Source of the DNA: Octopus vulgaris
Taxonomy: Eukaryota
NCBI GenBank assembly: GCA_951406725.2
Contig: OX597823.1
Span: 20,956,001-21,020,000, forward strand
Reading direction: 5' to 3'
DNA: 64,000 nucleotides
The translations under genes were made by a program, and so were the position numbers. The notes beneath the pieces are model-generated. The model had not been told where the DNA came from, made no database searches, and saw only the letters and a program-made list of their open reading frames with translations. Below, one piece after another: positions 31,961-32,607 of this stretch. Position 1 is the first letter of the stretch. The number at the start of each line of letters is the position of its first letter.

Positions 31961-32383
31961 TATAAATAAGGGCAAACGAAAAAAATTTCTAATGCCAAAT
32001 ATGCCGAAATTGGACACCTTAACCATAACCATATAATTTTTCACAATACGCACGCTACTCAAAGAAAGTCGACGGAAATTTCTAAAAAATTCCATTATTA
32101 CCATATCAGACCGATTTCAGGGTTAGTTCATAAGAATCCTCCCTCGTCAGTGATAAATCTGGCAAAGAAATAAATGGGATACTTACTCATACCCATAGAA
32201 GAAGCAAACACTAAGTCATGAGCACAATTAAGTATCCCAAATGGTAATGATGGAATTTTTTAGAAATTTCTGTCGACCTTTTTTGAGTAGCGTGCGTATT
32301 GTGAAAAATTATATCGTTATGGATAAGGTGTCCAATTTCGGTATATTTGGCATTAGAATTGTTTTGGTTTGCCCTTATTTATA
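31961..32383. repeat. Inverted repeat, ~143-bp arms (31961-32104 / 32241-32383), around a hammerhead motif
   Basis: Arms align in reverse complement with scattered substitutions; (TA)n arrays on both flanks. Confidence 0.9.
32104..32155 (-). ncRNA. Minimal type I hammerhead ribozyme motif
   Basis: tatca-CTGACGA-ggg...cct-GAAA-tcgg-TC-tgata; 5-bp perfect stem I, GUC triplet. Confidence 0.75.
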
Positions 32384-32607
32384 AGTAGTTTATAAATTTA
32401 ACCTTTAAAGGTATTTTTTAATATGCTGGCCATTGATAAAAAAAATTTTTTTCGAAAAAAATTTATCCTACATTAACTATATATATATATATATATATAT
32501 ATATATATATATATATATATATATATATATATATATATATATATATATATATATATATATATATATATATATATATATATATATATATATATATATATAT
32601 ATATATA

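Follow-up and report, generated by a model that had tools for sequence, protein, structure and literature searches.

Inverted 5' ends are familiar from LINE-1 elements, where twin priming yields two truncated cDNAs that meet in a head-to-head junction with short microhomology. Among Penelope-like elements (PLEs), an inverted, 5'-truncated copy together with a tail of 30–40 bp at one end is typical (PMC8557442), and inverted pLTRs with an optional tail have been described (PMC3846280), with microhomology at a 5' junction as well as palindromes at inverted junctions. In the PLE insertion system studied in vitro, both target strands are nicked and extended, two start sites of reverse transcription define the tail, and RNA left unprocessed serves as the main substrate; that work reports no RNA-seq reads ending at the ribozyme cut (PMC11167929). 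The minimal hammerhead ribozymes of PLEs were defined by Cervera and De la Pena (2014, PMC4209133), with low activity in vitro, and natural hammerheads may deviate at positions 10.1–11.1 according to the part of PMC3088659 that treats them.

We analyzed a fold-back module in a 64,000-nucleotide stretch of Octopus vulgaris DNA, hereafter the window. The window is AT-rich (35% GC), dense in repeats and contains many (TA)n arrays. The module consists of two 5'-truncated, head-to-head copies of the end of a high-copy repeat with a hammerhead motif, placed inside a (TA)n tract (Table 1); we found no second copy of it elsewhere in the window. The two arms, 31961–32104 and 32241–32383, are 93.1% identical over 144 columns (E = 4e-57), and the right arm starts at +5, that is, 4 nt beyond the predicted cut, in agreement with the preliminary description of the locus. 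A fold-back assembly artefact is ruled out by the arm-to-arm differences, which amount to nine substitutions and one gap. Because the 2-bp microhomology at the junction is matched by both copies, the start of copy B ranges from +5 to +7. The (TA)n sequence originally placed on both flanks is present as two arrays, although the five bases next to the left arm are not TA and the 92 bp beyond the right arm belong to the element itself. This extension contains a 22-bp perfect palindrome near the element end (32443–32464).

Table 1. Features of the module, its neighbour and a dispersed repeat in the window; copy coordinates with a sign are relative to the predicted cut.
Feature	Position	Strand	Basis or remark
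Left (TA)n array	31912–31955	n/a	likely target microsatellite
Five non-TA bases between left array and left arm	31956–31960		filler, target or decayed element
Copy A (−133 to +148)	31961–32242	−	hairpin, hammerhead and arm; without 3' extension
Left arm, 144 bp	31961–32104	−	
Minimal type I hammerhead motif	32104–32155	−	predicted cut 32109/32108
65-nt hairpin, 5' of hammerhead	32175–32239	−	folding
5'-to-5' inversion junction, 2-bp microhomology	32241–32242		loose ends behind 32242 and before 32241
Copy B (+5 to about +239), inverted, 5'-truncated	32241–32475	+	without hammerhead
3' extension, 92 bp, copy B alone	32384–32475	+	depth, loose ends
Right (TA)n array	32478–32607		common to 3' end of neighbouring Penelope-like element
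Neighbour: broken, 5'-truncated Penelope-like element of a different family	32608–34098	−	reverse transcriptase (RVT_1, E = 1.4e-7)
Repeat with unit of ~185 bp	619–921, 3817–4041, 4997–5311, 7543–7904, 8692–8836, 16849–17470		
Repeat with unit of ~185 bp, continued	24086–24889, 26864–27272, 42231–42653, 45803–46037, 47195–47441		

The earlier view that the module has no coding sequence held. There is no ORF at the locus in the window copy and no frame that stays open all through its 3' extension. A frame of 49 codons opens at the first base of the left arm, but it is compatible with chance (P = 0.02), is frameshifted in the right arm and has no homologue among three candidates; the notion that the arm is the N-terminus of a parent ORF is unsupported, though a protein search is weak at 49 residues. 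We also considered the right arm as a copy that had lost its hammerhead by deletion, a scenario hinted at by an 11-bp match at 32229–32239. It was rejected because the match is one strand of the spacer hairpin and the family sequence runs on normally past 32242.

To the right of the module, the Penelope element with a different pLTR named in the preliminary description was recovered. It retains a reverse transcriptase, a CX4CxxC linker and a truncated GIY-YIG-like part, with reverse transcriptase and endonuclease in different frames, and its linker fits the CX2-5CxxC mark of Neptune and Nematis (PMC8557442). Its terminal repeat holds a degenerate hammerhead at 32639–32706 (HH9, E = 0.25). Comparison with the module gave no significant similarity (best E = 0.10 over 22 nt), and the neighbour was on that ground rejected as the module's parent. 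The two elements stand tail to tail across one microsatellite; a second copy of the neighbour's 3' end, 87% identical, lies at 3089–3403 and also abuts (TA)n. Beside the neighbour's 5' end, 34115–34132 forms an 18-bp perfect inverted match with 33757–33774 (E = 6e-4), possibly another small 5' inversion derived from a related copy.

Several other repeats were found in the window. One is present in two copies (30572–31761 and 34183–34412, 80–87%), the first of which is split by an insert of about 970 bp (30718–31689) that begins with CAGT, ends with ACTG and contains a (TCT)n tract; without a Pfam match, it resembles what we take to be a pogo/Tigger-type remnant. At least 11 places carry, singly or in short tandems, an abundant repeat whose unit measures about 185 bp (80–92% identity); it has no match to the hammerhead descriptor. 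Four dispersed copies of a family of about 375 bp lie on both strands (50296–50668, 57242–57594, 58617–59000 and 62168–62552; 80–88%), and non-LTR retrotransposon remnants with RVT_1 and zf-RVT occur at 19072–20304 (+), 37060–38719 (+) and 27667–28908 (−), each adjoining simple repeats.

To place the module in its family, copies were sampled from contigs of four runs (X1, X2, X6 and X12, with three organism labels) using a likeness of 80 and, as reference, 32105–32477, which contains one copy of each part. The four runs contain at most 0.36 of the sampled words, and the contigs therefore represent relatives rather than the window locus. The parent repeat family is abundant, with 3278, 2479, 2336 and 62 contigs matching the reference in X1, X2, X6 and X12, respectively. 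In the same order, 50, 38, 32 and 2 contigs extend beyond 32242 into upstream sequence that they have in common; the element is therefore longer, and the spacer represents its 5' part in truncated form. The idea of a short element with a fixed fold-back form is not supported, 50 contigs of X1 alone leaving the reference at 32242. The upstream sequence is visible for 30 letters. Hammerhead-like letters stand before the arm (32241) in 22, 15, 20 and 4 contigs, with an agreement of 0.75 in the 22 of X1, and a joint of 32105 with 32241 occurs in 6, 6, 3 and 2 contigs; hammerhead followed by arm is hence the normal order of the family, and the 32242/32241 junction looks locus-specific.

The 3' extension has the highest summed depth of the whole stretch in all four runs, and (TA)n follows directly on 32475 in 35 contigs of X1, which identifies it as the 3' end of the element and not as flanking DNA. 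In the loose ends listed, beyond which there are 514 more, +148 did not recur as a 3' end. Summed depth over the hammerhead is several-fold below that on both sides, a figure subject to edge effects and a clipping indel and not equivalent to copy number. No contig crosses the window's own junction among the 32 pieces listed (8222 others lie outside these), which does not amount to evidence that such contigs are absent. Of the two arms, the left is the closer match to the family majority at five listed positions. Five letters common to both arms are minority letters in X1, where the family letter accounts for 72–98% of the depth, and this sharing indicates a single donor for both arms. A 22-base pattern from the arm had no matches in metagenome, viral and prokaryote contigs; the 11 metagenome loci matching a 20-base pattern from the extension were dismissed as chance, the likeness stopping at 20–24 bases in all 11.

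The minus-strand hammerhead and its predicted cut proved to be as first described. The core reads CUGACGA, stem II, GAAA, loop UCGG and UC, in line with the invariant CUGANGA/GAAA/UH, and our descriptor matches nowhere else on either strand of the window; three matches in total arose in 200 block-wise dinucleotide shuffles (0.015 per window). Rfam returned no matches at the gathering threshold in the window and no hammerhead family on the module at E ≤ 10. Stem I has 5 bp (32155–32151 paired with 32108–32104), while in the window copy stem II has 3 bp and loop III four bases. Many family copies have a stem II one base longer, and its first pair, G–U in the window copy, is likely A–U in them. 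The window copy does not show the combination of a G10.1–C11.1 pair and an extra base between 9 and 10.1 listed among the criteria in PMC4209133; this lowers confidence in the predicted activity but not in the reality of the motif. The loose ends of X2 have, in a consensus and not in single molecules, an A–U pair where the window has G–C, a swap that may be a hint of covariation.

Folding models bear on the activity of the motif. The active fold of the monomer is unfavourable (+4.8 kcal/mol). The loop III region is quasi-palindromic, with a 6-nt stretch that self-pairs fully, including two G–U pairs (−3.1 kcal/mol), and such self-pairing could permit a hammerhead dimer, although the active dimer was not chosen in an unconstrained co-fold. 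Taken with the missing G10.1–C11.1 pair and a C at +1 that stands opposite A in the family loose ends, the monomer model would argue against strong cleavage.

Upstream of the hammerhead, the spacer folds into the 65-nt hairpin with a free energy of −28.3 kcal/mol (z = −6.2; none of 200 shuffles folded as well), and the two family variants at paired positions both stay paired as G–U. The base of this hairpin lies at the junction, and copy A stops 3 nt further on, after reading straight through the uncut hammerhead site, and copy B ends within the 3' strand of hammerhead stem I. RNA structure, rather than cleavage, may therefore set the breakpoints: stalling or fold-back at a structure suffices to place a junction near the cut, and cleavage is not required for it.

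We consider it probable that the module is one insertion of a Penelope-like element into (TA)n, made of two reverse transcripts, mainly from uncut RNA, that were joined head-to-head. The element has the traits of the Penelope type, namely a hammerhead in the terminal repeat, an inverted 5'-truncated copy, variable truncation and a (TA)n target, and the original classification as a Penelope-type, hammerhead-bearing, non-coding insertion is supported by motif and geometry alike. Formal membership among Penelope-like elements is likely on this analogy in RNA motif and geometry; the family's reverse transcriptase gene was not found. The steps we infer are nicking, two starts of reverse transcription, stalling and joining. 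A family-specific protein with reverse transcriptase and GIY-YIG domains would nick both strands of the microsatellite, one 3'-OH priming from the outer end (+239), the second from an inner site (+148); with start sites that differ in this way, the extension would be expected on one arm alone. The cDNA of copy A would then stop early beyond the strong hairpin and that of copy B inside stem I, and the two would be joined through the 2-bp microhomology. The closeness of the junction to the cut would on these terms reflect stalling at RNA structure or chance, with no need for cleavage. The 92-bp extension, compared with published tails of 30–40 bp, counts against this explanation, and a target-site duplication is unreadable within (TA)n.

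A possible but unlikely alternative is that the module arose by fold-back self-priming, in which one cDNA (or antisense RNA) that ran from the outer end to −133 copied the arm back upon itself. Its 3' end would be kept near 32104 by the two hairpins and prime through the 2-bp match, and copy A would lose the 92-bp end later or during integration. Both hairpins do fold on the cDNA strand (−14.0 kcal/mol with DNA parameters), bringing the 3' end close to 32101–32104. The five minority letters common to both arms are as expected from such copying, and self-priming as well as palindromes at inverted junctions have been proposed for rotifer Penelopes (PMC3846280). However, the template arm must in addition have lost 92 bp, and the other listed junctions start at many places in or beyond the hairpins, so that the fold is not generally required.

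The preliminary description had instead read the inverted arm as the record of a self-cleaved RNA end, with the clustering of breakpoints at the cleavage site as a check. Of 22 joints between reference positions, the 15 listed were analyzed. They comprise ten head-to-head junctions, one joint in the normal hammerhead–arm order, two apparent short deletions ending at 32241 (+5; both from X2), one internal deletion and one ambiguous case (32203/32438, X2). In the ten listed head-to-head junctions, which have 0–4 shared or a few added letters, the downstream copy starts at +5, +5, +14, +28, +39, +50, +61, +95, +99 and +132. None was reported at +1, a position that the reference would display as +5. 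The partner copy starts 5' of the cut in nine of the ten (at −35 to −133 or beyond); these partners thus cover the hammerhead side, which is absent from a 3' cleavage product.

The weight of the near-cut junctions depends on the reference, which is broken at 32105/32241 so that breakpoints from about −20 to +7 all appear there. Two of ten at +5 would have P = 0.023 if the positions were exact and P = 0.33 with the reference pile-up; the corresponding values for three of ten within +15 are 0.03 and 0.18. Every junction comes from a single contig of a single run, eight of the ten have a short side of less than 30 nt, and the direction of the X12 junction was inferred from the record layout. With single contigs, such short sides and a likeness of 80, the sample is small and noisy. 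The breakpoints form no tight cluster; they spread from +5 to +132, and a cleavage origin of the inverted arm is weakly supported at best.

In its explicit form, this reading derives copy B from the 3' self-cleavage product and copy A from uncut RNA, reverse transcription running off the 5'-OH end at +1 and about 4 nt being lost before the joining to copy A. The motif has every invariant core base, and its loop III region could self-pair for a dimer; the window junction and two of the ten others listed lie at +5, and the two apparent X2 deletions also terminate at 32241. Against these stand the eight listed junctions from +14 to +132, the P values of 0.33 and 0.18 once the pile-up is counted, the first stem II pair that is not G10.1–C11.1 and the C at +1 opposite A. 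Moreover, ribozyme-dead RNA inserted as well as the wild type in the sole PLE tested in vitro, according to the sections of PMC11167929 on that system. We find this origin rather unlikely for the module; among the listed junctions it is not supported as the rule but could be a minor path.

A variant of this minor path, which we hold to be slightly more doubtful, concerns a minority of insertions: two RNAs that the dimeric hammerhead keeps together, of which just one has been cut, would provide both templates, the uncut RNA giving the hammerhead-bearing arm and the cut RNA the inverted arm from about +5. Our literature searches found no earlier claim tying dimeric-hammerhead RNA pairs to the formation of inverted pLTRs. 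If correct, the dimer reading would make genomic junctions a fossil record of in vivo cleavage by PLE ribozymes and link ribozyme dimerisation to inverted-pLTR formation.

The possibility that the module is a decayed non-LTR retrozyme, with short tandem units and a circular RNA, we judge very improbable. A type I hammerhead with minimal stem III, low GC and the lack of coding sequence are shared with these elements (compare PMC7229834), which have been proposed as PLE derivatives (bioRxiv 10.64898/2026.07.22.740005), and a partial tandem might underlie the X2 joint 32203/32438. The locus, however, has a single hammerhead, the window shows no tandem unit or direct repeat of the unit, and the 3' end of the family abuts (TA)n and not a next unit. 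Scarcely credible, finally, is a DNA transposon of the MITE or fold-back kind whose terminal inverted repeats measure 144 bp and whose target duplication is TA: the long inverted arms, TA flanks and non-coding interior would suit it, but the arms do not form the termini, the right one being followed by 92 bp of family sequence, and the interior junction varies, many contigs leaving at 32242 and ten other junction positions being found among those listed.

On its own the module matters little, and its value is that of a test bed. In vitro cleavage by PLE hammerheads is poor (PMC4209133), and in the one reconstituted system insertion did not depend on them (PMC11167929). When a family is as abundant as this one and has many inverted junctions, an assembly is enough for counting breakpoints around the cut. 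If they peaked sharply at +1 to +7, the genome would testify to a cleaved RNA template, while breakpoints spread flat or tied to hairpins would point to uncut RNA.

Compared with known systems, the module is closest to EN+ Penelope-like insertions. With these, as given for Penelope/Poseidon, Neptune and Nematis in the Fig. 2 legend of PMC8557442 and for A. vaga Pen2a in PMC3846280, it shares the head-to-head, inverted and 5'-truncated terminal repeat, the one-sided extension, the hammerhead within the repeat, the palindrome near an inverted junction, the microhomology at a 5' junction and the AT-rich or microsatellite target. It differs from them in the length of the extension (92 against 30–40 bp) and in having no ORF between the repeats, an extreme truncation. 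With the minimal PLE hammerheads (PMC4209133) it has in common the type I core, the 5-bp helix I, the tiny quasi-palindromic helix III that would need a dimer, the prevalence of solitary copies and the tie to truncated PLEs; opposite-strand pairs 100–700 bp apart are already reported there. Unlike these, the module lacks G10.1–C11.1, carries the motif on one arm alone and has a continuous helix II of 3–4 bp with a further short hairpin in its loop.

The AT-rich target and the probable template of uncut RNA have their counterpart in PAc (Poseidon of Anolis carolinensis), in which the extension of both strands and two starts of reverse transcription fit the module's two different 3' ends; the PAc ORF starts inside the hammerhead and its tail lies within the ORF, whereas in the window copy no frame stays open all through the module's extension (PMC11167929 for PAc). 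Animal non-LTR retrozymes resemble the module in being non-coding and low in GC and in their type I hammerhead, but the module has no tandem units and its arrangement is inverted and not direct (PMC7229834 and bioRxiv 10.64898/2026.07.22.740005). In contrast to LINE-1 twin priming, the two pieces overlap by 144 bp, which creates an inverted repeat, and there is no poly(A) tail. In sum the architecture is ordinary and shows, in compact form, a geometry already known from Penelope insertions.
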